39,394 nt of DNA from a virus: positions 1 through 39,394 of IMG/VR virus record IMGVR_UViG_3300045988_030421; one strand, 5' to 3'. The notes under the pieces are model-generated. The model was not told the DNA's origin. It did no database searches and was given only the letters and a program-made list of their open reading frames with translations. The translations under genes and the position numbers were made by a program. Below, piece after piece: positions 4,733 to 17,061 of this stretch. The stretch's first letter is position 1; each line of letters starts with the position of its first letter.

Positions 4733-5629
4733 ATGGCTGAAATAAAATGGATCAAGATAACGACGGATATTTTCGATGATGAAAAAATCCTGCTTATCGA
4801 GAGTATGCCGGAAGCGGACAGCTTGATTGTGATATGGTTCAAGTTGCTTTCGTTCGCTGGGAAGAGCAATAACAATGGGGTTTTCATGCTTTCGTCGAAA
4901 ATCCCGTATACAGATGAGATGCTTTCGACAATATTCCGCAGACCGCTCAACACTGTCAGGCTGGCTCTAAAGACGTTCGAGCAGTTTGGCATGATTGAAT
5001 ATATCGACGGTGTTATAACGATCCCTAATTGGGAAAAACACCAGAATATCGACGGCATGGAAAAGATCAGGATGCAGAACAGGGAACGAAAGCAGCGGCA
5101 GCGGCTCAAACAAAAAGAGCAATTACTTATCGGTGACGGTCACGTGACAGTCACGGAAAGTCACGCAACAGAAGAAGATAAAGATAAAGAAAAAGAAAAA
5201 GAAAAAGAAGAAGATAAAGAAAAGATAAACTACCAGCGAATTGCTGACATGTATAACGAGATATGTGTTTCATTTCCCCGTTTGAGGTCTTTGTCTGAGG
5301 CAAGAAAAAAGGCACTTCGTGCCCGTGTACATAGTGGCTTCACGATGGATGATTTTCGAGAGCTGTTCACAAGAGCCGAACAGAGTTCATTCCTTAAAGG
5401 CAAAAACGACCGGAATTGGAGCGCAACGTTCGACTGGATGATTAAGGACGCAAACGCAGCAAAAATCCTTGACGGGAATTATACAGATAAAGCACCGAGC
5501 GGCATGGGCAATAATGGGCTGGTCGAGATCAATGGAAAACAGTACATTTGCAAAAACGGGAAGTATTACATACCAAACGGTAGCGGCGTTGCTGTTGATC
5601 CTTATGCGCCTGATGATCTGCCGTTCTGA
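4733..5629 (+). CDS. Phage replisome organizer (N-terminal Phage_rep_org_N-type domain, conserved phage C-terminus)
   Basis: MAEIKWIKITTDIFDDEKILLIESMPEADSLIVIWFKLL... is the typical N-terminus of replisome organizers. C-terminal ...FLKGKNDRNWSATFDWMIKDANAAKILDGNY. The central linker is KE-rich. Confidence 0.8.
   Translation: MAEIKWIKITTDIFDDEKILLIESMPEADSLIVIWFKLLSFAGKSNNNGVFMLSSKIPYTDEMLSTIFRRPLNTVRLALKTFEQFGMIEYIDGVITIPNWEKHQNIDGMEKIRMQNRERKQRQRLKQKEQLLIGDGHVTVTESHATEEDKDKEKEKEKEEDKEKINYQRIADMYNEICVSFPRLRSLSEARKKALRARVHSGFTMDDFRELFTRAEQSSFLKGKNDRNWSATFDWMIKDANAAKILDGNYTDKAPSGMGNNGLVEINGKQYICKNGKYYIPNGSGVAVDPYAPDDLPF
5133..5229. other. Candidate origin of replication inside the organizer gene (iteron cluster + A-rich tract)
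   Basis: Five GTGAC/GTCAC pentamers at 5133, 5139, 5144, 5150 and 5160, including the palindrome GTCACGTGAC. They are followed immediately by about 60 nt of hexamer-periodic GATAAA/GAAAAA repeats (5170-5229). Confidence 0.4.
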
Positions 5630-5642
5630 TGGGGGTAAAGAA

Positions 5643-6485
5643 ATGGACGTTTCAAATGCGATTGACGGAATCATAAACAGAGCTGCGATCAGTATCAAAG
5701 CAAATGAGGGCGATTATTTGGGCGAGGATGGGCTTTTGCGTTGTGGGCAATGTCACACACCGAAGCAGCTCGAAATAAGCGTATTCGGCAATATTCGCCG
5801 TCCTATGTGCCTGTGCAAATGCGAGGCAGAAAAAAGGGAAGCGGAAGAAAAAGAACGAAAGCGGGTTGAGTTCGAGCGGCGTGTCAAAGGTATGCGCCGT
5901 GTAGGTTTTCCGGAAAGCGAAATGCAGTCGTGGACATTCGCAAATGACGACATGCAAAACGAGCGGATCACGAAAGCGATGCTTAATTATGTGGAGCATT
6001 TCCCGGAGCTGAGGAAAGCAGGCAAGGGCTTGCTGCTGCATGGCAGCGTTGGCACCGGAAAGACATATGCAGCTTGCGAGGTTGCCAATGCCCTTGTCGA
6101 TAAAGGTTATCCCGTGTTGGTAACAAACTTTGCAAGGCTCACAAATACGATACAGGGGCTTTTCGATGGGCGGCAGGATTATATCGACAGCCTGTCAAAG
6201 TTCGCTCTTATCGTGATTGATGATCTCGGAGCAGAACGCAAAAGTGAGTTTATGCAGGAACAAGTCTACAACATTATCGACAGCCGTTATAGATCAGGGC
6301 TTCCGATGATTATCACGACGAATCTGAGCATCGCGGAGATCAAAAATCCTACGGACATAGGCAATGCGCGGATTTACGACAGGATTCTCGAAAGATGTTT
6401 TCCGGTTGAGGTCAGCGGCGGCAGCAGGCGCAGAAATGCTGTCCGTGAGAGTTACAACGACATGAAAGATTTACTCGGATTGTAA
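5643..6485 (+). CDS. DnaC/IstB-like AAA+ helicase loader
   Basis: Walker A LLLHGSVGTGKTY, Walker B LIVIDDLGAE, then ...SGLPMIITTN. ATG 5643 after GGGGGT is the chosen start; the track ORF starts upstream at 5469, inside the previous gene. Confidence 0.85.
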   Translation: MDVSNAIDGIINRAAISIKANEGDYLGEDGLLRCGQCHTPKQLEISVFGNIRRPMCLCKCEAEKREAEEKERKRVEFERRVKGMRRVGFPESEMQSWTFANDDMQNERITKAMLNYVEHFPELRKAGKGLLLHGSVGTGKTYAACEVANALVDKGYPVLVTNFARLTNTIQGLFDGRQDYIDSLSKFALIVIDDLGAERKSEFMQEQVYNIIDSRYRSGLPMIITTNLSIAEIKNPTDIGNARIYDRILERCFPVEVSGGSRRRNAVRESYNDMKDLLGL

Positions 6486-6495
6486 GGGGGGGCAA

Positions 6496-6606
6496 ATGGG
6501 CATGAAATATCGAGAATTTATTGCAGCGGTTGAATATTTGGAAGTAAAGAACGGCGTTTATCCGTCATTCGGAATGTTGCTTGATTTTCTTTCACGCATG
6601 AGATAA
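6496..6606 (+). CDS. Small hypothetical ORF (36 aa)
   Basis: ATG 6496 is preceded by AAGGGGGGG and fills the gap between two genes. Below the track cutoff. Confidence 0.3.
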   Translation: MGMKYREFIAAVEYLEVKNGVYPSFGMLLDFLSRMR

Positions 6607-6623
6607 ATTGCGGAGGTATTGCT

Positions 6624-7019
6624 ATGACGTTAAAAGAGCTTAACTCGTTGTATTTCATTGAGCTTGAAATAGCAGAATACAAGAAAAAAATCGCAGAGTT
6701 GCGGGAAATGGCTGAGAGCATTTCCCCGAATTATTCCGGGATGCCGAGCGGATCAGGCTCGACAAACAAGATAGAAAAAGCCGTCCTTGCGATTGTATCA
6801 TATCAGGAAATGCTCGACCAAGCGATTTGCACAAAGGTCGAGCAGTCTGAGAAGATACACGCTTACATTTTGGACGTTGAGGACGCGCAAACGCGGCAGA
6901 TCATGATCTTGCGGTTTGTGCAGCGCAGACCGTGGAGCGAGATTGCGAGACATATAGGCGGCAACAACACGCCGAGCGCGGTGAGAAAGCGAGCAATACG
7001 GTACATTGAAAACCATTGA
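6624..7019 (+). CDS. DUF1492-type sigma-70 region-4-like transcriptional regulator (ArpU/RinA-like late activator class)
   Basis: ...SPNYSGMPSGSGSTNKIE... followed by ...EDAQTRQIMILRFVQRRPWSEIARHIGG...SAVRKRAIRYIE. This matches the DUF1492 pattern from memory. Confidence 0.6.
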   Translation: MTLKELNSLYFIELEIAEYKKKIAELREMAESISPNYSGMPSGSGSTNKIEKAVLAIVSYQEMLDQAICTKVEQSEKIHAYILDVEDAQTRQIMILRFVQRRPWSEIARHIGGNNTPSAVRKRAIRYIENH

Positions 7020-7494
7020 AGAACTTTATCTCGAAAATGAGAAAATCGTGTATTTCGCGTTGGGCAAGTATTATCCTGACTGGGCGTTTGACGAGGACGC
7101 GCAGCAGACCGCAAAAATGGCGTTGTGGAAAGCGTGCCGAGATTATGACGAGAAACGGGGCAAATTTTCGACGTGCGCGATTCGTTACATACGAAATGAA
7201 ATGTGGAATTATCTCCGCGCTGGAAGAAGGCGGCTGCCTACAGTATCACTTGACGATCCTATAAATGATACGGGCGAGTCGGTGCTAGCCGATATAATAC
7301 TGGGAGACGACGACATCGTTTGTGACAGCTTGTATTTGATTGATTCTAGGCTGTCAGAGCGGCGGCAAAAAATTGTAGATTGTCTAGCCGCAGGAATGAC
7401 TTTGCAGGAAACAGCTGATACTATAGGCATTTCTAGAACGGCTGTGTATAACAATATTGAGCGCATACGGCAGATTCTTTCCGAGAAAGATTAA
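7006..7494 (+). CDS. Sigma-70 family RNA polymerase sigma factor (regions 2 and 4)
   Basis: Region-2-like FSTCAIRYIRNEMWNYLR and region-4 HTH GMTLQETADTIGISRTAVYNNIERIRQIL. TTG start overlaps the upstream gene by 14 nt. Confidence 0.8.
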   Translation: MKTIEELYLENEKIVYFALGKYYPDWAFDEDAQQTAKMALWKACRDYDEKRGKFSTCAIRYIRNEMWNYLRAGRRRLPTVSLDDPINDTGESVLADIILGDDDIVCDSLYLIDSRLSERRQKIVDCLAAGMTLQETADTIGISRTAVYNNIERIRQILSEKD

Positions 7495-7596
7495 GTTGTC
7501 CGAAATGTCCGCATATACCTGTGATATATTATAAGTGGGTCAGGTGCAAGGGTTTCCCATGTTGTATCTCCTTTTCCTTTTTTGTTTGTGGCGAGA

Positions 7597-7624
7597 GGCA
7601 GTCCTTTACGGGCTGCCTTTTGTC
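7597..7624 (+). terminator. Rho-independent terminator ending the early operon
   Basis: GGCAGTCC (7597-7604) pairs with GGGCTGCC (7610-7617) with one G-U pair, followed by TTTTGTCATATTT. Confidence 0.65.
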
Positions 7625-7647
7625 ATATTTAAGGCGGTGAAACTACT

Positions 7648-7830
7648 GTGTACAAAAATAGCGAGGGCTATCCCGATCCAACAGCGGGAGCGGCTTTTAG
7701 ACATATCGCAGAAGAAAAGCGAGCGAAAGACCTTATCTCCGTGTTGAGGTACATTATTCGCGTCGCCGGGTTCGAGCTTATCAATCGAATAGAGATCAGA
7801 GAAAAAAAGTCCGGGAGGGAATTCCGATAA
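7648..7830 (+). CDS. Small conserved phage protein (60 aa), first gene of the late operon
   Basis: GTG start. The N-terminal YKNSEGYPDPTAGAAF motif recurs in small Firmicutes-phage proteins. Function unknown. Confidence 0.55.
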   Translation: MYKNSEGYPDPTAGAAFRHIAEEKRAKDLISVLRYIIRVAGFELINRIEIREKKSGREFR

Positions 7831-8559
7831 ATGGAGATCGTGAACAAGCGGCTGAACGAAATCGAGCCATATGAAAAAAATCCGAGAAAGAATGACGAGG
7901 CTGTTCAGTACGTTGCCGAGAGCATCCGGCAGTTCGGCTTCAAAGTTCCGATTGTCATTGACCGAGACGGCATAATCGTTGCCGGTCACACGAGATATAA
8001 GGCCGCAAAGTTCCTCAAGCTGGACGAGGTGCCGTGCATCATCGCTGACGACCTGACAGACGAGCAGGTCAAAGCGTTTCGCCTTGCAGATAACAAGGTT
8101 GGAGAGTTTGCCGAGTGGAACGAGGACTTGCTGGCGTATGAGCTTGCCGACATCATTGACATTGACATGACAGACTTCGGCTTTTCATTCGACGATGATG
8201 AGGACGAGGACGACAAGTACACGCTCGCGGTTACTATTCCGCAGTATGAGATCACGGGAGCTTGTCCGGAGCTGGAAGAGCTGACCGAGGAAGATAAGAC
8301 GGAAGAGCTTATCGCGGAAATTGAGCAGTCAAACGTAACGGACGAGCAAAAGGCGTTTCTCATCAAAGCAGCGAGACGGCACACAGCGTTCAATTATTCG
8401 CTCGTGGCCGAGTATTATGCTCACGCTGACGAAGAGATGCAGCGGCTCATGGAAAAGTCCGCGCTTGTCATTATTGACGTTAACGACGCGATTGCGAACG
8501 GGTATGCACGCCTGTCAAGTGAGATCGTTCAGATGATTGAGGAAGACAAAAATGCGTGA
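7831..8559 (+). CDS. ParB-like nuclease (ParB/Srx N-terminal) domain protein
   Basis: ...IEPYEKNPRKNDEAVQYVAESIRQFGFKVPIVIDRDGIIVAGHTRYKAAKFL..., followed by an acidic linker (DDDEDEDD) and a helical C-terminal region. Confidence 0.8.
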   Translation: MEIVNKRLNEIEPYEKNPRKNDEAVQYVAESIRQFGFKVPIVIDRDGIIVAGHTRYKAAKFLKLDEVPCIIADDLTDEQVKAFRLADNKVGEFAEWNEDLLAYELADIIDIDMTDFGFSFDDDEDEDDKYTLAVTIPQYEITGACPELEELTEEDKTEELIAEIEQSNVTDEQKAFLIKAARRHTAFNYSLVAEYYAHADEEMQRLMEKSALVIIDVNDAIANGYARLSSEIVQMIEEDKNA

Positions 8560-9400
8560 CGATTTTGCGATTTTCATCCTGACGCATGGGAGAGCCGGTA
8601 ACGTCAAGACTATACCGAGAGTGCTTGAGAAGAGCAATTACACCGGGAAGTATTACATTGTCATTGATAACGAGGACGATCAAGCGGACGAGTATTACAA
8701 ACTGTACGGTGATAAGGTGTTCATGTTTGACAAGGCTGCCGTTGCAAAGACGTTTGACGCGATGGATCAGTCCGAAGACCGGCGAATGATAGTTTATGCC
8801 CGCAATTATTGCTTCGATTTGGCGGAACAGTTAGGGCTTAAATATTTCCTCGAATTCGACGATGATTACAATTCGCTCGATTATAGATGGATAGACGGCA
8901 AGAGGCTGCGCATGACAAATGTCCAGCAGATGGATAGGCTGTGCGAGCTTATGATCGAATGGCTTGAGGTGTCTAGAGCACAGACGGTTTGTTTTGCTCA
9001 GGGCGGTGACTTCATCGGCGGTGCAAAAGGCGGCAATTACGGGAAAAAGGTCTTACGCAAGGCGATGAATACGTTCTTTTTCAAGACCGAAAACCGGCTA
9101 ACCTTCACCGGCAGACAGAACGAGGATGTTGTTACATACGTTACCGAGGGCAATCGTGGGAAGCTATTCATGACGATTACCGACGTGAACATTGTCCCGA
9201 CGGCTACGCAGAACAACAAGGGCGGTTGCTCTGACGTGTATTTGGAACAGGGGACGTATGTAAAGTCATTTTATGCTGTTATGGCAAGCCCTCAAGCTGT
9301 GTGCGTCGATATGATGAACAGTCGTCATGCGAGAATACACCACAGGGTTGACTGGGATAGATGTGCGCCAAAGATTCTTAACGAGAGGTGGAAAAAGTGA
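8552..9400 (+). CDS. GT-A-fold glycosyltransferase-like protein (282 aa), family not identified
   Basis: N-terminal strand DFAIFILTHGR, then ARNYCFDLAEQLGLKYFLEFDDDY (helix plus DxD strand, typical of GT-A). ATG 8552 follows GAGGAAG and overlaps the upstream stop. The track lists TTG 8537. Confidence 0.5.
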   Translation: MRDDFAIFILTHGRAGNVKTIPRVLEKSNYTGKYYIVIDNEDDQADEYYKLYGDKVFMFDKAAVAKTFDAMDQSEDRRMIVYARNYCFDLAEQLGLKYFLEFDDDYNSLDYRWIDGKRLRMTNVQQMDRLCELMIEWLEVSRAQTVCFAQGGDFIGGAKGGNYGKKVLRKAMNTFFFKTENRLTFTGRQNEDVVTYVTEGNRGKLFMTITDVNIVPTATQNNKGGCSDVYLEQGTYVKSFYAVMASPQAVCVDMMNSRHARIHHRVDWDRCAPKILNERWKK

Positions 9401-10341
9401 GTATCATCGAAAACAAGCTGCTGTACAATCTCGATTACGTTGTGGAGCAGAAGCCGTTAACGGCAGATATTTTCCTGACGAATTATTGCAACAATAGATG
9501 CCCTTATTGTGCGTATGCACGATACGAGGGCAGGCGCGAAAAGGGCGCGTATATGTGCTTCGTTGATTTCCAGAGATATGCGGAGCGGCTGCTTGAGCTT
9601 GGCGTAAAAGGGTTCATCCTGACCGGAGGCGGTGAGCCGACGATCAATCCTGATTTCGACCGCATTACGGCATGGCTTGAAGAGCGCGGCGTTTCGTATG
9701 GGATCAACACGAATTTCAACGTCTTGAAGAAGATCAAACCGAAGTACTTGAAAGTGTCGTTCGACGCATGGAGCGATGAGAGCTACAAAGCGAAACGCGG
9801 CGTGGCAAAGTACGAGCAGGCCCGAAAGAATATCATTGCTTATCGTGAATGGCAGCGAGCAGATGGTTTCGACACCTCGCTCGGCATTCAGTGCCTTGTG
9901 CAGACGATGGACGACATCGACAAGTTTTACGAGGCGAACAAAGACCTTGACGTCGATTATATCGTGTTCAGACCTGTTGAAAGCAAGCAGGGCAGTTATT
10001 ACGAGGATCGTAGCGAGGGCGAGTTCATCATGCGTTTGCTTGAGCTTGCAGCGCAGGACGAGCGAATCAATATCAATTACAAGTGGTTTAAGCTGGACGC
10101 ACACGTCGAGAGATGTTATGCGAATGCGAATCAGATTGCGTTGACGCAGACCGGCGATGTGATTTACTGCTGTCACAAGCCTTACGATGTGGTCGGACAT
10201 ATCCTCGATCCTGACATTATGCAGAAGAAGCAGCAGCACAAAACCGACATGACGATGTGCGACGTTCCGTGCAGATTGACAGGCGCAAACTTGTTTATGC
10301 ATAAGGTGCTGGCAGGATGTAAGGACAGCGAGTTCGTGTGA
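9388..10341 (+). CDS. Radical SAM enzyme with SPASM/twitch-like C-terminal cysteine motif
   Basis: CNNRCPYC (C34-x3-C38-x2-C41), GGGEP SAM-binding motif, C-terminal C-x12-G-x4-C (CYANANQIALTQTGDVIYC) followed by CDVPC and a further Cys. An alternative start GTG 9397 has the better RBS spacing. Confidence 0.85.
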   Translation: MEKVSIIENKLLYNLDYVVEQKPLTADIFLTNYCNNRCPYCAYARYEGRREKGAYMCFVDFQRYAERLLELGVKGFILTGGGEPTINPDFDRITAWLEERGVSYGINTNFNVLKKIKPKYLKVSFDAWSDESYKAKRGVAKYEQARKNIIAYREWQRADGFDTSLGIQCLVQTMDDIDKFYEANKDLDVDYIVFRPVESKQGSYYEDRSEGEFIMRLLELAAQDERININYKWFKLDAHVERCYANANQIALTQTGDVIYCCHKPYDVVGHILDPDIMQKKQQHKTDMTMCDVPCRLTGANLFMHKVLAGCKDSEFV

Positions 10342-10682
10342 CGACGCAAGAGATCATTGAGCTTATTGACAGCGGCAAGATCGTAAAGTTCTATCAGTCA
10401 CGAGAGTGGCGAGAGCTGCGAGAGGATGTGCTGCACGATCATCATTACGAATGTCAGCGATGCGCCGAGCGAGGCAGGTACACGAGGGCGACAATGGTGC
10501 ATCATGTGCAGGAGGTGCGCAAGCGTCCTGACCTTGCCTTGTGTAAGACGTATGTGGATTTACAAGGCGTAGAGCATCAGCAGCTCATGCCGTTGTGTCA
10601 AGCCTGCCACGAGGCGGAGCACAACAAGCTGAGTGCTTATAGCAATAAACATAACAATTTTGTCAACAAAGAACGTTGGTAA
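10338..10682 (+). CDS. HNH endonuclease (packaging-associated)
   Basis: ...HHYECQRCAERG...VHHVQEV...LMPLCQACHEAEHNK. Located immediately upstream of cos/TerS/TerL, as in HK97-like cos phages. Confidence 0.85.
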   Translation: MTTQEIIELIDSGKIVKFYQSREWRELREDVLHDHHYECQRCAERGRYTRATMVHHVQEVRKRPDLALCKTYVDLQGVEHQQLMPLCQACHEAEHNKLSAYSNKHNNFVNKERW

Positions 10683-10787
10683 GCGTTTATTTGTTGGTTT
10701 GATTACAATTTTGCGCATTATATGTTGACCAATATTACTCTATGTAATTTAATTCAGCCTCTTGTGTTCACCACTCAGAGACAAAAT

Positions 10788-10802
10788 CCCCCCCCGTGGG
10801 GG
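10788..10802. other. Candidate cos-site core (C8-GT-G5)
   Basis: CCCCCCCCGTGGGGG lies in the 300-nt non-coding gap between HNH and TerS. It is flanked by the imperfect inverted repeat TTCAGCCTCT (10753-10762) / AGAGGGGCTGAA (10821-10832). Confidence 0.35.
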
Positions 10803-10982
10803 TATATGGGGTCTTTTTGGAGAGGGGCTGAAATCGGGGCAAGGATTGACAAGAGAAAAAAATCTCCCTAAACAGGAATTTTTTCAAGTATTTTTGCTGC
10901 AAAAACAGCGCGAAAATTGAAAATGTGTGCCTCCTATGAGGACAGAAAATGATAACTTAAAGTATAAAAAGGCGGTGAGATC

Positions 10983-11429
10983 ATGGCGAGACCACGCGAG
11001 CCCGTTGACCTCATCAAGGCAAAGGGGCGAAAGCACTTGACGAAGCAGGAATATGAGGACAGGAAAGCGGCGGAGCTTGACGTGCCCTTCATGGATATTA
11101 AACCGCCTGACTATATCAAGGGTGAAAAGCAGATCGAAAAGTTTAATTATTATGCTGATATGCTGAAAAAGATCGGCATTTTCACGGAGCTTGACGTTGA
11201 TGTTTTGGCACGTTACATCATGGGCGAGCAGATTTATCTACAATACACGGCTTTGCTCGTGAAGTATTCAAAGGCGAATGACCTTGACAAGCTGGCGAAG
11301 ATTCAGACGTTGCAGGACAGAGCTTTCCGGCAGTGCCAGCAGTGCGCCCGTGATTTGGGCTTGACTATCACTTCACGCTGTAAATTAGTCGTGCCTCAGG
11401 TGGACGACGATGCAGATTTCGAGCTGTGA
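10983..11429 (+). CDS. terS: Terminase small subunit (P27-family-like)
   Basis: 148 aa. ...RKHLTKQEYEDRK...LDVDVLARYIM...RQCARDLGLTITSRCKL, positioned directly before TerL. Confidence 0.75.
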   Translation: MARPREPVDLIKAKGRKHLTKQEYEDRKAAELDVPFMDIKPPDYIKGEKQIEKFNYYADMLKKIGIFTELDVDVLARYIMGEQIYLQYTALLVKYSKANDLDKLAKIQTLQDRAFRQCQQCARDLGLTITSRCKLVVPQVDDDADFEL

Positions 11430-13050
11430 AGAGCTGCAAGAGTATATCGGCATCGTTGAGAGTGGCAAGGTTAAAACGTGCCAGTGGCAGAAAAAACTTG
11501 TTCAGCACATAAAGCACTGCTTTGAGACCGAAGCACTCACGATTGATTCGGAAAAGATAGCGTCGTACATGAGCTATCAAAAGTATTTCCCGTTCGATTT
11601 GTTCGCGTGGGAAAAGTTCTGTTTTATCCTGCATAATTGTGTGTTCCGTGAGGACGGGCAACCGCGATGGAGCGACCTGTTCATCCTGTGCGGCAGAGGC
11701 GCAGGAAAGAACGGTTATTTGTCGTTTGAGGATTTCTGCTTGATTACGCCAATAAATGGCATTGCGCAGTATCATATTGACATTTGTGCGAACAGCGAGG
11801 AACAGGCGAAAACGTCATTCGATGAGATATGGAACGTGCTCGAAAATCCGAAATACCGGAAAGTGTTCGAGCATAATTTCCGGTGGAATCGCACCGTTAT
11901 TGAGAATATCAAAACGCGGTCGCAGATCAAGTTCCGCACGAACAATCCGAAAGGCAAGGACGGTCTGAGATCAGGCAAAGTCGATTTCGACGAGCCTCAT
12001 GCTTATGAAAATTGGGAAAATATCAACGTATTCACGACCGGCTTGGGAAAAAAGCCGCATCCGCGCCGGACATATGTTTCCACGAATGGCGATGTACGAC
12101 AGGGCCCGTTGGATCAGTTGATTGATAAGTCCGAAAAAATTCTGAATGGAGAAATGCCGGACAATGGGTTCTTGCCGTTTATTTGTAAGATTGACAACGA
12201 GGGCGAAGTAAACGACCCGGATATGTGGGAAAAGGCGAATCCGTCACTCCCTTATCTGCCGACATTGAAAGAGCAGATGCAGCGTGAATACGCGGATTAT
12301 TTGCTCGACCCGATTATCAACAATGCGTTTATGACGAAGCGCATGAACGTCCCGCAGGGGCGCAAAGATAGCGAGGTTACGTCGTGGGAAAACATCTTGC
12401 GGACGAATAGAGAGCTGCCAGACCTGAGGGGCAAGCCGTGCGTTGCTGGTATTGATTTTGCAAAGACGACCGACTTTGTGTCGGTGTTCCTTTTGTTCAG
12501 GGGCGATAATGAGTTTTACGGCATTCATCATTCGTGGCTTTGCAGCAGATCAAATGATATTGGGCGCATTAAGTTTCCGCTGAAAACAGCCGTCGAGCAA
12601 GGATATTTGACGATGGTTGACGATGTGGAAGTGCATCCGGCAATCGTGTGCGATTGGCTGTATCAGCAGGCGCAGACGTATGACTTGTTGAAAGTGGCGA
12701 TTGACGATTATCGGTATGCGCTCATGTCACGTGAGTTGAAGTCAATCGGCTTTGATGCAGCCGAGAAAGAGGTCAAGCTGACAAGGCCGTCCGACATAAT
12801 GCGGAATCAGCCGAGAATCGCCTCCATTTTTGCAAATGGGCAGCTTGCAGTCGGCGACGATATGTTGTGGCGGTGGTTTACGAACAACACAAAGCTTGAG
12901 CCTGCGCCTAACGGCAACTTCAAGTATGGCAAGATAGAGCCGAAGAGCCGCAAAACAGACGGCTTTATGGCGTTTGTGGCGGCGATGTGCATATCGGATG
13001 AGTTACCTGAGCCTGCAAGCCTTGAATTTTTCCAGCCGATAGTTTTTTAA
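11410..13050 (+). CDS. terL: Terminase large subunit
   Basis: 546 aa. Walker A-like LCGRGAGKNG and a C-terminal nuclease-like region. The start overlaps the TerS end. Confidence 0.9.
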   Translation: MQISSCEELQEYIGIVESGKVKTCQWQKKLVQHIKHCFETEALTIDSEKIASYMSYQKYFPFDLFAWEKFCFILHNCVFREDGQPRWSDLFILCGRGAGKNGYLSFEDFCLITPINGIAQYHIDICANSEEQAKTSFDEIWNVLENPKYRKVFEHNFRWNRTVIENIKTRSQIKFRTNNPKGKDGLRSGKVDFDEPHAYENWENINVFTTGLGKKPHPRRTYVSTNGDVRQGPLDQLIDKSEKILNGEMPDNGFLPFICKIDNEGEVNDPDMWEKANPSLPYLPTLKEQMQREYADYLLDPIINNAFMTKRMNVPQGRKDSEVTSWENILRTNRELPDLRGKPCVAGIDFAKTTDFVSVFLLFRGDNEFYGIHHSWLCSRSNDIGRIKFPLKTAVEQGYLTMVDDVEVHPAIVCDWLYQQAQTYDLLKVAIDDYRYALMSRELKSIGFDAAEKEVKLTRPSDIMRNQPRIASIFANGQLAVGDDMLWRWFTNNTKLEPAPNGNFKYGKIEPKSRKTDGFMAFVAAMCISDELPEPASLEFFQPIVF

Positions 13051-13255: not shown

Positions 13256-13606
13256 ATGAAGCAAAACGTTTCTATGGTTAGGGGCAGAACGAGAATTTTC
13301 AACGTGCGCGTAACTGATGGCACAGGAGCGGCTTATATTTTGGGCACAGGCGAAAAACTCATTTTCGGGGTGAAAAAGAATTATTTCGATTCTGGCTACC
13401 TTATTAAAAAGAGCATTACGTCTGTAAATGCGACGAGCGAACCGGGGGTTTATGCTGTAGTTATCAAGCCGGAGGACACGGCAAGTCTGACGTGTGATAT
13501 ATATTGCTATGACGTTGGTTTGCAGAGCGGCTCCGATTATTATTCGGTGATTGATTGCAGCCATTTCGTAATCGAACCGAACATTACCAGCGAAGAGGTA
13601 CAGTAA
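13256..13606 (+). CDS. Hypothetical small beta-rich protein (116 aa), full-length copy of the duplicated unit
   Basis: RBS is GGGGGG. See 13066..13242 for the paralogy. Confidence 0.65.
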   Translation: MKQNVSMVRGRTRIFNVRVTDGTGAAYILGTGEKLIFGVKKNYFDSGYLIKKSITSVNATSEPGVYAVVIKPEDTASLTCDIYCYDVGLQSGSDYYSVIDCSHFVIEPNITSEEVQ

Positions 13607-14064
13607 TGAACTCGCATGTACAGATGGAGAACGTTGAAGAAATCAGCGGAAGCGTAGCTGCCGAAGAAATTGCTGGAAGTGTCGCCACCGAAGAAATTGG
13701 CGGAAGTGTCACTGCAAAAGAAATCAATGGGAGCGTAACTGCCGAAGAAATCAATGGGAGCGTCGCTACCACCGAAGAAATTGACGGAAGCATAGTAGAC
13801 TTTGGCGGAAATGGGGGCACTGGCGGCGGGAGCGGCACGGTGCAGAGCGTCAACGGCGTGCTGCCGGACACCGATGGTAACGTGCAGTTAGACCCGGAAG
13901 ACGTCGGCGCGGTGGACGAGGGCGAAGAGCTAACGATCCTTGAGAACGTAGACATGTGGAATAATGCCTGGTGGGAGGATAACTATGGCAACAAAATATG
14001 CGGGGCAGAATGCTCTAAACAAGTTGATGCAGATCATCAAGACTGCATTGTCTGGCAAGGCTGA
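13606..14064 (+). CDS. Repeat-containing fibre-like protein
   Basis: ATG 13606 overlaps the upstream stop (TAATG). Contains six EEIxGSVxA repeats, a Gly-rich stretch and the fibre-type motif VQSVNGVLPDTDGNVQLDPEDVGA. The last 80 nt overlap the next gene. Confidence 0.55.
   Translation: MNSHVQMENVEEISGSVAAEEIAGSVATEEIGGSVTAKEINGSVTAEEINGSVATTEEIDGSIVDFGGNGGTGGGSGTVQSVNGVLPDTDGNVQLDPEDVGAVDEGEELTILENVDMWNNAWWEDNYGNKICGAECSKQVDADHQDCIVWQG
13636..13797 (+). repeat. Six imperfect 24-30-nt tandem coding repeats (GAAGAAATYRVYGGRAGYGT...)
   Basis: They encode EEISGSVAA / EEIAGSVAT / EEIGGSVTAK / EINGSVTA / EEINGSVATT / EEIDGSIV. Confidence 0.85.
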
Positions 14065-14605
14065 CAAGACGGAATTAGATAAAAAGCTCGACAAGAGTGG
14101 CGGGACGGTTACTGGCAATCTGGTTGTCGATGGGAGTTTGCGCACGAACACCTTCTCCGTGGCGAACCTCGGCGTACATACGCCCGACCTCGCGCATGGG
14201 ATTACTCTTAGCTGCGAAAGTGGAAGCAGTGCCTCGCTTCTTGGAGAAGCGGCAGGGACGTATGCGAGCCTGCAGGTCGGCGCTCCAACTGGCGGCAATG
14301 ATGCGACCACAAAAGACTATGTTGACGCGAAGGTCACCGGTGTGTATACGCCGAAGGGGTCTATCGCTTTTGCGTCTTTGCCTACGGCAGCAGCCGGGAA
14401 CAGGGGCTGGGTATATAACATCTCCGATGCCTTCACGACAACGGCGGCTTTTGTCGAGGGAGCGGGGCACACCTACAGTGCTGGCACAAACGTCGTGTGC
14501 GTGGATGCTGGCAGCGGCAGCTACAAGTGGGACGTGCTCACGGGCACCATCGACCTGACGGAGCTGACGGCGGACGAGGTGCAAACGCTTTGGAATTCCT
14601 TTTGA
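13985..14605 (+). CDS. Tail-fibre-like protein
   Basis: ATG 13985 follows GGGAGG. N-terminus ...NALNKLMQIIKTALSGKADKTELDKKLDKSGGTVTGNLVVDG is a typical fibre motif and is paralogous to the N-terminus of 14621..14968. Confidence 0.6.
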   Translation: MATKYAGQNALNKLMQIIKTALSGKADKTELDKKLDKSGGTVTGNLVVDGSLRTNTFSVANLGVHTPDLAHGITLSCESGSSASLLGEAAGTYASLQVGAPTGGNDATTKDYVDAKVTGVYTPKGSIAFASLPTAAAGNRGWVYNISDAFTTTAAFVEGAGHTYSAGTNVVCVDAGSGSYKWDVLTGTIDLTELTADEVQTLWNSF

Positions 14606-14620
14606 TTGGGGGAGCGAGCC

Positions 14621-14968
14621 ATGCAGACAAGCGGAAGCGCTGCAATTAAAAAGCTGATACAGCTCGTAAAATCTGCGCTGGCTGGAAAGATGGATAAGTC
14701 TGGCGGCACGTTTACGGGCAACGTCACCGGTAAGTATTTTTGCGGCACGTGGCTGCAAACGACTGCCGCCAGCGACCTTGGCAGAACGCCTGGCAAGATC
14801 GCCGTGCTGGACGATTCCGGGTGGGTGTATTATCGCACACCGTCCGAGCTGTTGGGCGACATTGGTGCGATGTCTGGCGGGGATTACTACACCAAGGCGC
14901 AGACGGGTCAGGCAATCAAATCGTATGTTAATACCGCCATTACAGCGGCAATCAACAGCAGCTATTAA
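14621..14968 (+). CDS. Tail-fibre-like protein (short paralog)
   Basis: MQTSGSAAIKKLIQLVKSALAGKMDKSGGTFTGNV... ATG 14621 follows GGGGGAG. Confidence 0.55.
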   Translation: MQTSGSAAIKKLIQLVKSALAGKMDKSGGTFTGNVTGKYFCGTWLQTTAASDLGRTPGKIAVLDDSGWVYYRTPSELLGDIGAMSGGDYYTKAQTGQAIKSYVNTAITAAINSSY

Positions 14969-14982
14969 GGTGGTGAAACGAT

Positions 14983-15639
14983 ATGCCTACTAATGTGACA
15001 CTTACAAATTATATGGCGAACGGTGGGAAAGGTTGGTTTCCGGCCACGCGCGGAAACTGCACGTGGCTCAACTCATCCATCACGCCGGGCGACGGGGCCG
15101 CGTCCAGCGTTAAAATCACGCCGTCCGGCGCTGGAGAATGTACACTGACATCCGCAGCGCACAATCTGGTTGCATCACACAAATACTATATCAGCTTCAA
15201 GGTGCGGTTCGCGTCGGCTACAAAGGGCACTTGCGATTGGTATTGGCCGGTTGCCGAGCCTTGTGCAGCGCAAAACATGGCTTTTAATGTTGCGGCGGAA
15301 ACGTGGGTGCGCCTGTCAGCGGTATTCGAGCGCACAAGTTTTAGCAATGGCAGCTACCCTTGCCGTTTCGATTACAACAACACGGACGGGAAGAACACGC
15401 CGTTTTGGTTCACAAGTTGTATGCTGTTCGATTTGATTGCCGCCTTTGGTGCTGGTATGGAGCCTAGCAAAGAATGGCTTGACAAGCATGTCGCGGCATT
15501 TGCAGATTCGCATACTGTCGAGTATGTTAGCAATCTCGGTGAACTGTTCACCGACATTGCAAATGCGATTCGCGCGAAAAGTGGTCAGTCTGGCGAAATT
15601 TTCGCTTGTGATTTTGCAGATCGCATCCGGGCACTGTGA
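14983..15639 (+). CDS. Putative carbohydrate-binding / receptor-binding protein
   Basis: 218 aa, beta-rich and Trp/Cys-containing. The C-terminal ...LGELFTDIANAIRAKSGQSGEIFACDFADRIRAL motif recurs in Firmicutes phage fibre-associated proteins. Family not firmly recognised. Confidence 0.45.
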   Translation: MPTNVTLTNYMANGGKGWFPATRGNCTWLNSSITPGDGAASSVKITPSGAGECTLTSAAHNLVASHKYYISFKVRFASATKGTCDWYWPVAEPCAAQNMAFNVAAETWVRLSAVFERTSFSNGSYPCRFDYNNTDGKNTPFWFTSCMLFDLIAAFGAGMEPSKEWLDKHVAAFADSHTVEYVSNLGELFTDIANAIRAKSGQSGEIFACDFADRIRAL

Positions 15640-15701
15640 CTTTTTATATGCGGCGGTGTGGGAGGCTATCGAATGAGTGAAGATGATTGGGCGTGATATA
15701 A

Positions 15702-16307
15702 ATGCAATATATTGCAGATAGTAATGGCTACCTGAAAGAGGTTTCGTTCGGCTGCTCGGTGTCATGTAACGGCTCGACTTGCATCAATTATATAGGGGCA
15801 ACGCCGAGCGGCTACAGCAGCCTTGAAGAATGGTATCGTCAAGAGTGCGACAATCTGCATCAATGGAAAATCAGCGGTGGGAATCTCGTCAAGGACAGCA
15901 GCGCGACGGTTGAGGCGTTGAGCAATGTCGATTTTGTTGTGGATCATGGCACGACCGGTGTGTGGACGTGGCGAAAATGGTCTAGCGGCATTGCTGAAAT
16001 GTGGGGTGTGTTTGAGCCTGACGTTCTGGACATGAGTTCGCCGACGTGGGGGGCGTTGTATACTGCGTCGTGGATGGGATCGACCGAAAACAAAAACGGT
16101 CGAAAATATCCGTTTGCTTTCGTTGCAGAGCCGTTCGTTAACGCGACGCCAATGTGCAGAAATGCGAATTTCTGGATTGCGACCGATAGTGGAAACGATA
16201 CCGGCACGAGGCTGACACATGCCCCGGCTTATCAGTGTGTGAGAGCATCCGACGCGACACTGCGAAATCCTAAAATCAGTTATTACGTCGTTGGTAAGTG
16301 GAAGTAA
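15702..16307 (+). CDS. Putative receptor-binding knob protein
   Basis: 201 aa. The DHGTTGVWTWRKWSSGIAEMWG motif is typical of distal fibre/knob domains in prophages. Confidence 0.45.
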   Translation: MQYIADSNGYLKEVSFGCSVSCNGSTCINYIGATPSGYSSLEEWYRQECDNLHQWKISGGNLVKDSSATVEALSNVDFVVDHGTTGVWTWRKWSSGIAEMWGVFEPDVLDMSSPTWGALYTASWMGSTENKNGRKYPFAFVAEPFVNATPMCRNANFWIATDSGNDTGTRLTHAPAYQCVRASDATLRNPKISYYVVGKWK

Positions 16308-16320
16308 AGGAGGGGATAGC

Positions 16321-17061
16321 GTGGAGATCATTCAGAAATTTGTAACGCAAAATCAGATGTATACGAGCTATACGAGAATCCCGGTGCGCAAGCTGGTGCT
16401 GCATAGCGTAGGCTGTGCGCAGCCAAATGCGGAAGTTTTTGCGAGATCATGGCAGACGGCGAGATATTTTGCTCATGCTGTGCTTCAAGCTGACGGCACG
16501 GTATATCAGGTTATGCCGTGGGATTATCTTTGCTATCATGTCGGAGCAGCGAATGCATATAGCATCGGCGTTGAAATGACCGAGCCTGATTGCATCCGTT
16601 ATACAGGCGGTGCGACGTTTACTTGCTCCGATTGGGATAGGGCGGCAGCGCAGGTCGAGGGCACGTATTGGACGGCGGTTGAGCTGTTCGCGAAGCTGTG
16701 CGAGGAATTTGGTCTCAATCCGTATAATGACATTATGTCTCACAATGAGGCTGGCAAGATGGGCATCGGTACAGATCATGTCGATCCGGAGCATCTTTGG
16801 AAGCAGCTCGGCATGGGCTACACGATGGATGGATTCCGGCAGGACGTCTATGAAAAGATGCATGAAAGCGAGGTGGATGAAGAAATGGCTATCAGATATA
16901 ACCGTGTTGATGAAATGCCGAGTTACTACCGTGAGGAAGCGCAGGCCCTTGTCGATTGCGGAGCATTGCGCGGCGATGAGCATGGTAATCTCAAAGTCAC
17001 TGAGGATATGCTGCGCTGTTTGATTATCAGCAAGCGTTACTCTGACAAAGTTAACGGGTAA
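16321..17061 (+). CDS. N-acetylmuramoyl-L-alanine amidase (Amidase_2/PGRP-type endolysin)
   Basis: ...LVLHSVGCAQ...YHVGAANAYSIGVEM...SHNEAGKMGIGTDHVDPEHLW. GTG 16321 after AAGGAGGGG is the chosen start; the track lists TTG 16291. The C-terminal ~55 aa look like a single SLH-like repeat. Confidence 0.85.
   Translation: MEIIQKFVTQNQMYTSYTRIPVRKLVLHSVGCAQPNAEVFARSWQTARYFAHAVLQADGTVYQVMPWDYLCYHVGAANAYSIGVEMTEPDCIRYTGGATFTCSDWDRAAAQVEGTYWTAVELFAKLCEEFGLNPYNDIMSHNEAGKMGIGTDHVDPEHLWKQLGMGYTMDGFRQDVYEKMHESEVDEEMAIRYNRVDEMPSYYREEAQALVDCGALRGDEHGNLKVTEDMLRCLIISKRYSDKVNG

Follow-up and report, generated by a model that had tools for sequence, protein, structure and literature searches.

A phage module of ParB-fold protein, TAGT-family glycosyltransferase and twitch-like radical SAM enzyme with a possible role in DNA glycosylation

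The four open reading frames at positions 7831-8559, 8552-9400, 9388-10341 and 10338-10682 of the window (the whole 39,394-nucleotide stretch of viral DNA that was analyzed) overlap successively by 8, 13 and 4 nt, and the ORF list agrees exactly with the coupled arrangement given in the preliminary description. They encode a ParB N-domain protein (242 aa), a TAGT-family GT-A glycosyltransferase (GT; 282 aa from the ATG at 8552), a twitch-like radical SAM enzyme (rSAM; 317 aa, GTG start) and an HNH endonuclease (114 aa, GTG start), with the ParB-like, GT-A and radical SAM assignments proposed earlier being borne out by Pfam/PHROG profile matches. The features of the region are listed below.

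6624-7019, + strand: late-regulator gene, phrog_36-type (phrog_36, E = 4.6e-17)
7006-7494, + strand: late-regulator gene, sigma-70 r2/r4-like (Sigma70_r2, E = 2.8e-10)
7588-7626, + strand: RNA hairpin between the regulator genes and the module, a candidate terminator or attenuator
7648-7830, + strand: 60-aa ORF abutting the ParB start codon, possibly the first gene of the operon (ORF list)
7831-8559, + strand: ParB-CTPase-fold N-domain protein with no HTH (Pfam ParB_N, phrog_620)
8552-9400, + strand: TAGT-family (PF20691) GT-A glycosyltransferase (Pfam, phrog_842, invariant DDD motif, AF2 and Foldseek)
9388-10341, + strand: twitch-like radical SAM enzyme of an unnamed family (Pfam Radical_SAM, invariant Cys, AF2 and Foldseek)
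10338-10682, + strand: HNH endonuclease whose gene is translationally coupled to that of the rSAM (Pfam HNH, phrog_119, phrog_4581)
10983-11429, + strand: terminase small subunit (Pfam Terminase_4, 2.1e-10)
11410-13050, + strand: terminase large subunit (TerL_nuclease 4.7e-16, TerL_ATPase 3.2e-8)

The terminase genes at 10983-13050 are the context that defines the pre-terminase slot, and the module heads the late operon beside the packaging genes, outside the lysogenic-conversion region and the structural genes. A phrog_36-type regulator is also present upstream of ParB in many related loci. The 17-bp hairpin at 7588-7626 has an MFE of -28.3 kcal/mol (z = -7.27, with 0 of 200 shuffles equally stable) and supports the early-operon terminator that had been placed upstream of the module, though the terminator consensus scan did not report it. 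The 60-aa ORF that follows has the Shine-Dalgarno-like sequence AAGGCGGTG 5' of the GTG.

The HNH endonuclease, encoded by the fourth of the coupled genes, belongs with the HK97-type terminase/packaging module and not with the other three genes. It matches Pfam HNH (21.7 bits; GA 21.4), phrog_119 (9.5e-19) and phrog_4581, "terminase small subunit" (1e-12), and lies 300 nt upstream of the Terminase_4 TerS, beside TerS/TerL as in the HK97-type terminase-associated HNH proteins, an association linked to cos cleavage. An HNH gene follows rSAM only in a near-identical relative (L027/L117), is found upstream of ParB in L107 and is missing from nearly all related trios; because it is missing there and travels with the HK97-type terminase, it is placed outside the module.

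The ParB-like protein has the ParB/Srx-type N-domain ascribed to it (Pfam ParB_N E = 2.1e-9, 37.8 bits compared with a gathering score of 26.3; phrog_620 E = 2.5e-64). The nucleotide-binding N-domain is joined by an acidic linker to a C-domain that is helical, and there is no DNA-binding HTH; the Spo0J NBD is matched, box II (GHTRYKAA) aligns with the Spo0J GERRYRAA motif, and the PDB matches span residues 3-110 only. A canonical ParB/Spo0J partition protein (TIGR00180) was rejected, the score of 44.2 bits being below the cutoff of 58.45 and no HTH domain being detected. The protein is extremely acidic, with a pI of 4.26 and a charge of -32. The N-domain finds its closest counterparts in the ParB domains of phage DNA methyltransferase fusions (phrog_498, 9e-42; PADLOC MTase_II PDLC03229, 1.4e-24), and the slot is, as had been noted, the one these fusions use, directly ahead of the terminase genes in temperate Firmicutes phages. 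Unlike the fused enzymes, the window ParB carries no methyltransferase domain; it is encoded as a polypeptide of its own, ending in an acidic C-terminal domain, and its catalytic partner is a glycosyltransferase. Residues N17-P18-R19 and R54 are near the N14/R16/R56 quoted for ParB176 (PMC13229309) when the numbering is compared by eye.

The glycosyltransferase is a true member of the Pfam TAGT family (PF20691; 103.2 bits compared with a cutoff of 27.5, E = 2.3e-29, profile positions 1-205 of 205; phrog_842 E = 3e-60), in agreement with the TET/JBP-associated type suggested for it. Among 28 homologues there is no variation at residues E101, D103-D104-D105 and H12-G13-R14, and all significant PDB matches of the AF2 model (pLDDT 80.8) in Foldseek are GT-A fold enzymes, among them GpgS, SpsA, K4CP, AvpGT and GnT-I with TM about 0.47, which bears out the GT-A hallmarks and DxD site read earlier from the sequence. 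The T2/T6 β-glucosyl-HMC-α-glucosyltransferase, of the same family and fold, acts on DNA that contains glucosylated 5-hydroxymethylcytosine, to which it attaches a second glucose (PMC13216743, PMC13390438). The TAGT proteins are basic (median pI 8.4), the rSAM family slightly acidic (median pI 6.1).

The rSAM matches Pfam Radical_SAM with E = 4.6e-14 (53.4 bits, cutoff 29.5). Eight Cys residues are invariant in 30 homologues, three in the C34-x3-C38-x2-C41 motif, with G80-G81-G82-E83-P84 equally invariant, and five in the C-terminal region (C243, C261, C262, C291 and C295), where the conserved pattern is C243-x12-G256-x4-C261-C262 ... C291-x3-C295. In the SPASM/twitch signature proposed for the enzyme the CX3CX2C, GGGEP and C-x12-G-x4-C elements stand, but the full seven-Cys SPASM motif (CX9-15GX4C ... 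CX2CX5CX3C ... C) is absent and Pfam SPASM gives no match even at E<=1, and for these two reasons the term twitch-like is preferred. No NCBIfam cutoff is reached, with N_Twi_rSAM scoring 31.9 bits (cutoff 170) and the DesII and BlsE models falling below significance. The C-x17-CC spacing may resemble that of the auxiliary cluster of BtrN, which like DesII and BlsE is a carbohydrate-acting rSAM enzyme of the twitch/SPASM neighborhood. NrdG was rejected (TIGR02495, 25.9 bits, cutoff 131.15; no nrdD in the window).

Foldseek matches of the rSAM AF2 model (pLDDT 88.7) include DesII, SuiB, BlsE, anSME and viperin. DesII (PDB 8hzv) and BlsE (PDB 7vob) are among the top matches (E about 1e-12 to 1e-10, TM about 0.6-0.66), sharing a partial TIM-barrel rSAM core with a Cys-rich C-terminal extension, and their substrates, a TDP-sugar and cytosyl-glucuronate, respectively, are sugars on a nucleotide or nucleobase. 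Unlike these enzymes, to which it is 14-16% identical, the window rSAM is from a phage-borne, GT-linked family. The peptide-modifying SPASM enzymes SuiB, anSME and SkfB score almost equally against it, and at the sequence level the best PDB matches, TYW1 and MoaA, have a base or nucleotide rather than a sugar as their substrate. DNA-acting rSAM enzymes such as SPL are absent among the top 50 structural matches.

Of 34 non-redundant related loci, 31 show the order ParB-TAGT-rSAM-terminase, with one to three TAGT genes, and they are spread over several packaging backbones unrelated to one another; recurrence of the order in about 100 independent loci places the arrangement far beyond chance. Co-occurrence of the GT and rSAM in relatives and placement of the rSAM in a housekeeping family such as NrdG were points on which the preliminary description had staked its proposal, and both came out in its favor, since the co-occurrence is strong and the enzyme is not NrdG. 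In 30 of the 31 viral loci seeded with TAGT the gene directly ahead of TAGT is ParB, and phages infecting E. coli, Lactobacillus, Nocardia, Porphyromonas and Haloarcula also carry the pair. ParB-TAGT is the near-universal core and the rSAM a clade-specific add-on, because the pair is near-obligate and widespread in phages with no rSAM; an equal trio, as first described, is not upheld. The rSAM-proximal TAGTs form one clade that includes the window TAGT, and nested inside it are the TAGTs of L109-L112, 61-63% identical to that of the window, with no rSAM. In L022 a GT8 enzyme is present beside the rSAM in place of TAGT and there is no ParB, and in L013 and L036 the rSAM has no GT nearby. Strict anaerobes of the gut account for every host that could be identified for the rSAM module (14 of 14 host genomes). 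The module has moved across unrelated kinds of capsid and terminase and thus has no fixed structural-protein partner.

The genes adjoining the rSAM in related loci are mostly sugar-related. The closest relative, L107, has a GalU-like NTP_transferase directly after the rSAM, L102 has a UDP-galactopyranose mutase in the module, and extra TAGTs occur in 10 of the 34 non-redundant loci; L008 has an amidoligase, with no obvious sugar chemistry. A distant rSAM relative in MW202801 is located in a glycan-type cluster directly after a capsid gene. Pfam/PHROG scans of about 45 window ORFs agree with the earlier reading in showing no methyltransferase, TET/JBP or hydroxymethylase gene; the claimed lack of nucleotide-sugar genes also holds for these ORFs but not for the L107 module. 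Neither these window ORFs, nor about 100 related loci, nor the complete phi jlb1 genome showed an acceptor-making enzyme (5mYOX, dCMP/dUMP hydroxymethylase, α-/β-GT), and none making a 5-hydroxymethyl acceptor was found in the ParB-TAGT-only phages.

The weak viperin-type matches of the rSAM raise a first alternative, a viperin-like nucleotide-modifying enzyme that would supply the ParB fold with a modified CTP/NTP, or make a chain terminator directed at the host or at rival phages, with an incidental link to the GT. This appears highly improbable. The matches (PADLOC pVip, 7.8e-8, residues 24-132 only; NCBIfam viperin, 1.6e-5) span the generic rSAM core only, and viperin_w_prok was rejected at 24.2 bits (cutoff 180), although viperin structures are among the Foldseek matches, "annotated viperins" have been remarked on in the vicinity of phage GT pathways and ParB folds bind CTP, ATP or GTP (PMC12704722). 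The rSAM also tracks the GT and not ParB, as in L022. Five C-terminal Cys residues are invariant in the window rSAM family, and viperins are not known to have an auxiliary-cluster Cys set.

Some phage thymine dioxygenases need a ParB activator to act on double-stranded DNA, and the neighborhood of this pathway comprises ParB, an oxidizer, a GT and terminase, with an Fe(II)/2-oxoglutarate dioxygenase as the oxidizer (PMC13229309). The 5mYOX clusters (PMC13229309; bioRxiv 10.1101/2025.08.14.668559) appear to share with the window a stand-alone ParB-fold protein of NBD-linker-CTD layout with no HTH. In these clusters ParB is encoded beside a post-replicative DNA-modifying enzyme, and GT-A glycosyltransferases and terminases often co-occur; the window ParB appears to keep the NPR and GxxR residues. 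The associated ParB activators carry Asn for MxParB Q52, and in a comparison with the published description the layout and N17-P18-R19/R54 of the window protein seem to fit (PMC13229309). Unlike the 5mYOX clusters, the window has no 5mYOX/TET/JBP dioxygenase but does have a radical SAM enzyme, its ParB directly adjoins the glycosyltransferase, and the hosts of the module are strict anaerobes. Fe(II)/2-oxoglutarate dioxygenases require O2.

The rSAM could be considered as an oxygen-independent substitute for a TET/JBP-type 5-methylpyrimidine dioxygenase, making the handle glycosylated by TAGT. Hydrogen would be abstracted from the C5-methyl of thymine or 5-methylcytosine in DNA, the radical oxidized by the auxiliary cluster and water or another nucleophile added, with ParB assisting on double-stranded DNA. 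The shared neighborhood of the published ParB-dependent pathway, the strict-anaerobe hosts and the window having no other acceptor-generating enzyme all accord with such a role, but ParB-TAGT pairs are found with no oxidizer in phages whose hosts are aerobic, facultatively anaerobic or strictly anaerobic. A separate clade of rSAM-proximal TAGTs is expected if a special acceptor is recognized, but the nested TAGTs of L109-L112 persist with no rSAM, and in L022 the rSAM pairs with GT8 and no ParB. The invariant auxiliary-cluster Cys set would suit the chemistry, as would the sequence matches to MoaA and to TYW1, whose point of attack in tRNA is the methyl group of a base; set against these are the acidity of the rSAM family, accessory genes directed mostly to nucleotide-sugars and not bases, and the top 50 structural matches with no SPL-like DNA-acting enzyme. 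The known O2-independent hydroxylases of nucleic acid bases and quinones are of the U32 family and not the rSAM superfamily, which also counts against the substitution, and we regard it as quite unlikely.

A different precedent is provided by "subclass II" phage pathways, in which the GT depends on a partner sugar epimerase (bioRxiv 10.1101/2023.12.21.572611). These GT plus donor-tailoring pathways resemble the window in that the GT adjoins a predicted supplier of a special nucleotide-sugar and variants have two to three successive GTs, and differ in starting from 5hmC made via MT+TET or dCMP hydroxymethylase, none of which the window has, and in having an NAD-dependent epimerase as the partner where the window has a radical SAM enzyme. 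The earlier statement that the GT and rSAM fit no described pathway holds in part: ParB-assisted DNA modification (PMC13229309) and GT plus sugar-tailoring pairs (bioRxiv 10.1101/2023.12.21.572611) are known, and what is new here is limited to the rSAM partner and the lack of an acceptor route.

We tentatively favor, with a probability of about 40%, a late-expressed, ParB-assisted phage DNA-glycosylation module in which the rSAM tailors the sugar. TAGT would move a sugar from a nucleotide-sugar to phage DNA shortly before or during packaging, and the acidic ParB-fold protein, the predicted activator or loader of the glycosyltransferase, would be its obligatory partner by analogy with the ParB activators of phage thymine dioxygenases. 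The rSAM, the predicted sugar-tailoring partner of the GT, would be an oxygen-sensitive, anaerobe-restricted add-on, most likely converting a host- or phage-made UDP/NDP-sugar to an unusual donor for the cognate TAGT and less likely editing a sugar already attached to DNA. We infer DNA as the target from a true TAGT in a family with a DNA-acting T2/T6 member, from a ParB N-domain and pre-terminase slot as in phage DNA methyltransferases, and from the near-obligate ParB-TAGT adjacency and the ParB precedent (PMC13229309). Sugar tailoring by the rSAM is suggested by its coupling to the GT in 31 of 34 loci, the GT8 substitute in L022, its dispensability for the close TAGTs of L109-L112, the GalU-like NTP_transferase, UDP-galactopyranose mutase and extra TAGTs, the DesII/BlsE fold neighbors, a pI below that of TAGT and the GT-plus-epimerase precedent (bioRxiv 10.1101/2023.12.21.572611), and its oxygen sensitivity would suit the strict-anaerobe hosts. 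Against the sugar-tailoring role are the TM of only about 0.6-0.66 to DesII/BlsE, TYW1 and MoaA as the best sequence-level PDB matches, the amidoligase in L008 and, for coupling to the GT, L013 and L036. Against DNA glycosylation is the absence of a 5-hydroxymethyl acceptor maker from the window and the ParB-TAGT-only phages, and we know of no TAGT that acts on unmodified DNA.

The target may instead be other than DNA, with the GT and rSAM building or editing a glycan on a virion protein or a cytoplasmic envelope precursor (teichoic acid, lipid-linked sugar) and ParB acting as a DNA-unrelated nucleotide-binding regulator. In the NEB survey GT contigs with no 5mYOX/ThyS are less obviously DNA-related, and the roughly 65% of phage GT contigs with no base-modification partner were judged less likely to be so, but the characterized phage TAGT acts on DNA (PMC13216743, PMC13390438); O-GlcNAcylation of a protein has been reported for a eukaryotic protein that carries a TAGT-type domain (PMC7968844). 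The ParB protein is over-acidic for ordinary DNA binding and may make no DNA contact at all, and the ParB-CTPase fold has many non-DNA roles (PMC12704722), whereas its N-domain is nearest to those fused to DNA methyltransferases in the identical slot and the TAGT is basic. The GT8 of L022 and the UDP-galactopyranose mutase of L102 are typical of envelope glycan synthesis, and the MW202801 relative lies in a glycan-type cluster after a capsid gene; the module itself, however, is at the late-operon head by the packaging genes and not in the lysogenic-conversion or structural region, and it is mobile across capsid and terminase types with no fixed structural-protein partner. A non-DNA target is on balance unlikely.

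The chemistry of the module has not been previously described. If DNA glycosylation with an rSAM-tailored sugar is its true function, the resulting non-standard DNA glycan would escape both ordinary restriction and glycosyl-DNA-specific defenses.

The window looks like an entire temperate siphovirus-type genome, and the four overlapping genes that the preliminary description set down ahead of the terminase, with the first three as a candidate modification system, are borne out in the ORF list, with overlaps of 8, 13, and 4 nt. A near-identical relative of the phage is IMGVR_UViG_3300045988_048209.

Features of the window, by nucleotide position
634-1656: integrase
4.7-6.5 kb: replisome organiser and DnaC-like loader
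7588-7626: very stable hairpin (-28.3 kcal/mol, z = -7.3)
7831-8559: ParB-like protein, 242 aa (Pfam ParB_N, E = 2.1e-9, above threshold, residues ~1-90)
8552-9400: TET-associated glycosyltransferase (TAGT), 282 aa (Pfam PF20691, E = 2.3e-29, profile matched full-length; phrog_842, E = 3e-60)
9388-10341: radical SAM enzyme (rSAM), 317 aa (Pfam, E = 4.6e-14)
10338-10682: HNH endonuclease (Pfam/PHROG profile matches)
10983-13050: Terminase_4 TerS and TerL
16291-17061: Amidase_2 gene, within the TerL-portal stretch
17129-18268: portal
33-35 kb: Gp157 and NinB-like recombination genes
38720-39058: 112-aa ORF (phrog_18716, 4.4e-41; phrog_801, "dATP/dGTP pyrophosphohydrolase," 1.2e-15)

The hairpin at 7588-7626 is placed after two late-regulator genes and before a 60-aa ORF (7648-7830) with a GTG start and a Shine-Dalgarno-like sequence, which ends exactly at the ParB start and possibly opens the operon; in many related loci, too, ParB is preceded by small ORFs (66-92 aa). 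A second hairpin, between the HNH gene and TerS, is discarded as a terminator (z = 0.18). The ~3.8 kb between the TerL end (13050) and the portal start (17129) is an unusual insertion site with a local GC peak of 0.557, where, within 13256-17061, six ORFs have no Pfam match and weak PHROG matches only (phrog_38190, hyaluronidase, tail-fibre C terminus). The product of 38720-39058 is a MazG-like nucleotide pyrophosphohydrolase and could influence dNTP pools.

The whole 242-aa ParB-like protein matches phrog_620 (E = 2.5e-64 in PHROG profiles), and its motif GHTRYKAA aligns to box II of Spo0J. Its acidity is extreme (pI 4.26, net charge -32 over the 242 aa; family median pI 4.35, n = 89) and its linker reads DDDEDEDD, a property reminiscent of DNA-mimic proteins and hard to square with direct DNA binding; the median pI is 6.1 (mildly acidic) for the rSAM family and 8.4 (basic) for TAGT. 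The TAGT family (PF20691) is that of the T2/T6 enzyme that puts the second glucose on glucosyl-hmC (PMC13216743; also PMC13390438). The DDD (Asp-103 to Asp-105) and HGR motifs of the window TAGT are invariant across 28 homologues, and its AlphaFold2 model (pLDDT 80.8) matches only glycosyltransferases of the GT-A fold in the PDB, at a modest TM of ~0.47.

In the radical SAM enzyme the invariant residues comprise the C34-x3-C38-x2-C41 motif, GGGEP, and the C-terminal Cys-243, Cys-261, Cys-262, Cys-291, and Cys-295. It had been described as SPASM-type; the radical SAM assignment stands and the full SPASM assignment does not, the seven-Cys motif being incomplete and no SPASM model being matched, and the enzyme is better termed twitch-like. 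Against NCBIfam it reaches no curated cutoff, the best matches being the W-cofactor maturase (45.8 bits versus a cutoff of 380), MoaA, and N_Twi_rSAM (31.9 versus 170), and ten distant representatives of the family (E 1e-38 to 1e-25) likewise reach none. The best PDB relatives by sequence are TYW1 and MoaA (E ~1e-8). The AlphaFold2 model (pLDDT 88.7) is nearest to DesII, SuiB, BlsE, anSME, and viperin (TM ~0.6-0.66), which places the predicted fold in the twitch/SPASM neighbourhood. The substrate of several top structural neighbours is a nucleotide- or base-bound sugar, as for DesII and BlsE (labelled TDP-sugar deaminase and cytosyl-glucuronate decarboxylase, respectively), and peptide-modifying enzymes are almost as close. 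Identities as viperin or NrdG are ruled out by score, and a viperin-like, nucleotide-modifying role for the enzyme is very improbable. For the chemistry of the rSAM the gene context is more telling than the structure.

Relatives of the rSAM form 823 metagenomic clusters at E <= 1e-3, the best 120 of which are all at least 50% identical and ~320 aa long, and there are 149 matches in IMG/VR. The gene order (late regulator)-ParB-TAGT-rSAM-TerS-TerL, its junctions tight or overlapping, is seen across ~100 retrieved loci. When these were dereplicated at 90% rSAM identity and only loci with enough upstream DNA were counted (n = 34), both ParB and TAGT adjoined the rSAM in 31 and at least two TAGT genes were present in 10. 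The terminases and portals next to the module are of at least four unrelated types (GpA-type, Sf6/T7-like, Terminase_4/HK97-like, and others), and the module is therefore mobile as a unit. All 14 rSAM matches in a species-representative genome collection fall in strict anaerobes of the gut (Blautia, Lachnospiraceae, other Clostridia, Phascolarctobacterium, and Muriventricola); one extra match lies on a short contig binned as Bacteroides. The HNH gene follows the rSAM only in the near-identical relative L027/L117 and is sited elsewhere in the contig carrying the closest TAGT relative; it goes with the HK97-type terminase and is outside the module. An intact orphan rSAM homologue, 52% identical, occurs in a Clostridiales MAG (L013, JAJQDV010000041, 6001-6963) beside an ABC transporter, a SEC-C protein, and a threonyl-tRNA synthetase; its surroundings lack phage genes, ParB, and any glycosyltransferase. 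As a copy amid bacterial housekeeping genes it is uninformative and was dropped as evidence for a glycosyltransferase-independent rSAM.

Viewed from the TAGT, ParB-TAGT is the core of the module and the rSAM is an add-on. In a tblastn search of isolated phages with the TAGT, a ParB-like gene adjoins it and the two stand shortly before the terminase genes. Phages that infect Lactobacillus, E. coli, Salmonella, Nocardia, and Porphyromonas have this arrangement, as does the haloarchaeal virus HHTV-2, and none of these isolate loci has an rSAM or a dioxygenase. Among 31 TAGT-seeded IMG/VR loci, ParB lies directly upstream of TAGT in 30 and an rSAM is present in only 3. The upstream ParB in jumbo-phage contigs is sometimes just the ~120-aa N-domain. 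In jumbo-phage contigs and ~190-kb Vibrio phages (L125, L127-L129, L147, and L115; contigs and phages of 150-236 kb) a ParB N-domain alone, ~115-140 aa, precedes a TAGT that sits amid replication genes and not before the terminase. An apparent ParB-TAGT fusion, the 430-aa protein P0123, proved to be a partial tandem TAGT duplication and was rejected as a Rosetta stone. At one further locus (L063, IMGVR_UViG_3300024269_001299) a 188-aa P-loop (GPSCAGKT) protein, with no relatives in Pfam or the PDB, is inserted between ParB and TAGT and could be a pathway kinase.

In a neighbour-joining tree built from 63 non-redundant TAGTs, the copies proximal to the rSAM fall essentially in one clade, the distal (second) copies in separate deep clades, and those from rSAM-less phages elsewhere. 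The TAGTs of a Lachnospiraceae phage lineage (L109-L112), 61-63% identical to that of the window, branch beside it inside the rSAM-linked clade in loci that have ParB-TAGT and lack the rSAM; this is most simply a secondary loss of the rSAM with a working glycosyltransferase kept. These loci bear on the idea that the rSAM makes the acceptor, taking the place of TET/JBP without a need for oxygen. A neighbourhood identical to that of dioxygenase clusters, the anaerobic hosts, and the clade-specific TAGT all suit such a role, which is nevertheless improbable given the many ParB-TAGT pairs that have no need of an oxidiser and the rSAM loss in the Lachnospiraceae phages.

Four variant loci show what accompanies the rSAM. 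In the contig with the closest TAGT relative, 74% identical (L107, logan:ERR14075594), a GalU-like NTP_transferase nucleotidyltransferase (7804-8697) directly follows the rSAM in the position of the window HNH gene; in the PDB it is closest to 3pnn (1.4e-42), an uncharacterised protein, and its relation to GalU is weak. In L102 (IMGVR_UViG_3300021426_000166) the rSAM (6001-6927) has a UDP-galactopyranose mutase (GLF, E = 1.3e-52) immediately downstream; ParB and three TAGT genes are encoded on the other strand. In the RUG12494 contig (L022, rSAM at 6001-6897) ParB and TAGT are both absent and a GT8 enzyme (Glyco_transf_8, 1.3e-36) precedes the rSAM in place of TAGT, which shows that the partnership of the rSAM is with a glycosyltransferase as such. 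The fourth, L008 (ena:ERZ27235102 k141_61261, 5337-12066), reads ParB-TAGT-TAGT-rSAM-Amidoligase_2 (1.9e-44) and includes, between TerL and the portal, a gene with a PAPS_reduct domain; this variant hints at a more elaborate modification, e.g. an amide-linked group. The constant partner of the rSAM is thus a glycosyltransferase, and the accessory genes are mostly those of nucleotide-sugar metabolism.

The GT8 and GLF variants are also what would be expected of a target among virion proteins or envelope precursors. In the freshwater podovirus MW202801 (L001, 7983-12646) a distant relative of the rSAM (26% identity) points the same way: directly after the major capsid gene it is clustered with a glycosyltransferase, a PhyH-type dioxygenase, a methyltransferase, a NodB-like deacetylase, and a second glycosyltransferase, a possible cassette for the modification of virions or glycans. 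Protein glycosylation is moreover reported for the TAGT-domain protein GREB1. The ParB domain is, however, of the methyltransferase type, the slot is the pre-terminase one, and the module is tied to no particular structural module, so that a protein or envelope target is considered unlikely.

The main gap in a DNA-glycosylation reading is the acceptor. Pfam and PHROG searches of ~45 ORFs of the window find no DNA methyltransferase, TET/JBP dioxygenase, thymidylate-synthase-type hydroxymethylase, deazaguanine genes, or nucleotide-sugar enzymes, and the absence of all of these claimed in the preliminary description therefore stands within the reach of profile searches. A hidden divergent dioxygenase was sought among the unannotated TerL-portal ORFs, the early ORFs, and the genes recurrent upstream of ParB in relatives, which gave regulator, structural, or unknown matches only. 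The complete genome of Lactobacillus phage phi jlb1 (L148) likewise has no candidate acceptor-generating enzyme; there is no sizeable ORF in its 1.4-kb unannotated gap upstream of ParB (11350-12746), where the only gene is a tRNA-Glu (12231-12304). To our knowledge there is no precedent for a TAGT acting on DNA without hydroxymethyl-pyrimidines.

The favoured reading, with a probability of about 0.4, is a late-operon DNA-glycosylation module in which TAGT would be the transferase, the acidic ParB-fold protein its near-obligate helper, and the twitch-like rSAM a sugar-tailoring enzyme. The helper role is proposed by analogy with the phage thymine dioxygenases, one subclass of which acts on double-stranded DNA only with a ParB-fold activator (PMC13229309, 2026); the activator of these 5-methylpyrimidine dioxygenases (5mYOX) consists of a nucleotide-binding domain, a linker, and a C-terminal domain with no DNA-binding domain (PMC13229309). 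Phage fusions of the ParB-CTPase fold to DNA methyltransferases are frequent (PMC12704722), and Aravind and co-workers are cited in PMC8256090 as proposing that ParB proteins steer modification machinery at packaging. The most likely substrate of the rSAM would be the NDP-sugar donor, the DNA-linked sugar being a less likely option. Action on the donor would resemble DesII-type chemistry and the epimerase partner of "subclass II" glycosyltransferases, one pathway class being dependent on a partner sugar epimerase for its donor (bioRxiv 10.1101/2023.12.21.572611). Sugar tailoring fits because a close TAGT can do without the rSAM, and because the rSAM tracks the glycosyltransferase and not ParB and is joined by sugar-related accessory genes.

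Phage GT-A and GT-B enzymes make varied glycans on 5hmC (bioRxiv 10.1101/2023.12.21.572611, 2023). In the same survey ~65% of ~25,000 phage glycosyltransferase contigs have no 5mYOX or thymidylate-synthase-type hydroxymethylase (ThyS) neighbour, and ParB, terminase, and "annotated viperins" are found near the glycosyltransferases; some of these viperins may belong to the rSAM family of the window because the rSAM has a weak pVip match. The superfamily of each gene is already known, and surveys have noted the ParB-glycosyltransferase-terminase neighbourhood. In the searchable literature no paper brings ParB, a glycosyltransferase, and radical SAM chemistry together for the modification of phage DNA. 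Nor does that literature describe the near-obligate ParB-TAGT pairing without any acceptor-generating enzyme, the unnamed twitch-like rSAM family that is dedicated to, and inherited with, a single TAGT clade of gut-anaerobe phages, or the sugar-nucleotide accessory genes that join it. The system is classified under phage post-replicative DNA glycosylation, with its function predicted.

It is doubtful, though a real prospect, that the chemistry is new, i.e. that in these phages, whose hosts are strict anaerobes, TAGT assisted by ParB and the rSAM dedicated to it make a DNA modification directly on canonical bases, bypassing a hydroxymethyl-pyrimidine intermediate. The rSAM could activate a base C-H bond as an oxygen-free counterpart of TET/JBP; alternatively, the pair could join sugar to base by a linkage without precedent or leave a radical-edited sugar on the DNA. 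Were this the case, the widespread ParB-TAGT pairs (the solitary TAGTs, found in hundreds of phage genomes) would form a class of ParB-dependent DNA glycosyltransferases that has so far gone unrecognised. Solitary TAGTs, whose function is undefined, are present in 288 of 753 glycosyltransferase-bearing phage genomes (PMC13216743, 2026), and their role is a question stated openly in recent papers. The window bears on it directly: TAGTs of the solitary type almost always stand with a ParB-fold partner at the head of the late operon, and in gut anaerobes one clade has acquired a radical SAM enzyme of its own. The three genes offer a compact, tractable system for asking whether glycosyltransferases, like dioxygenases, can depend on ParB, what the acceptor is on seemingly unmodified DNA, and whether radical SAM chemistry has a part in the hypermodification of phage DNA where oxygen is absent. 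If a new glycosylated base is made, it would bear on the arms races of gut phages and their hosts, through restriction, CRISPR, and glycosyl-DNA-specific defences, and also on sequencing artefacts in the gut virome, and it would be a source of DNA-labelling enzymes.
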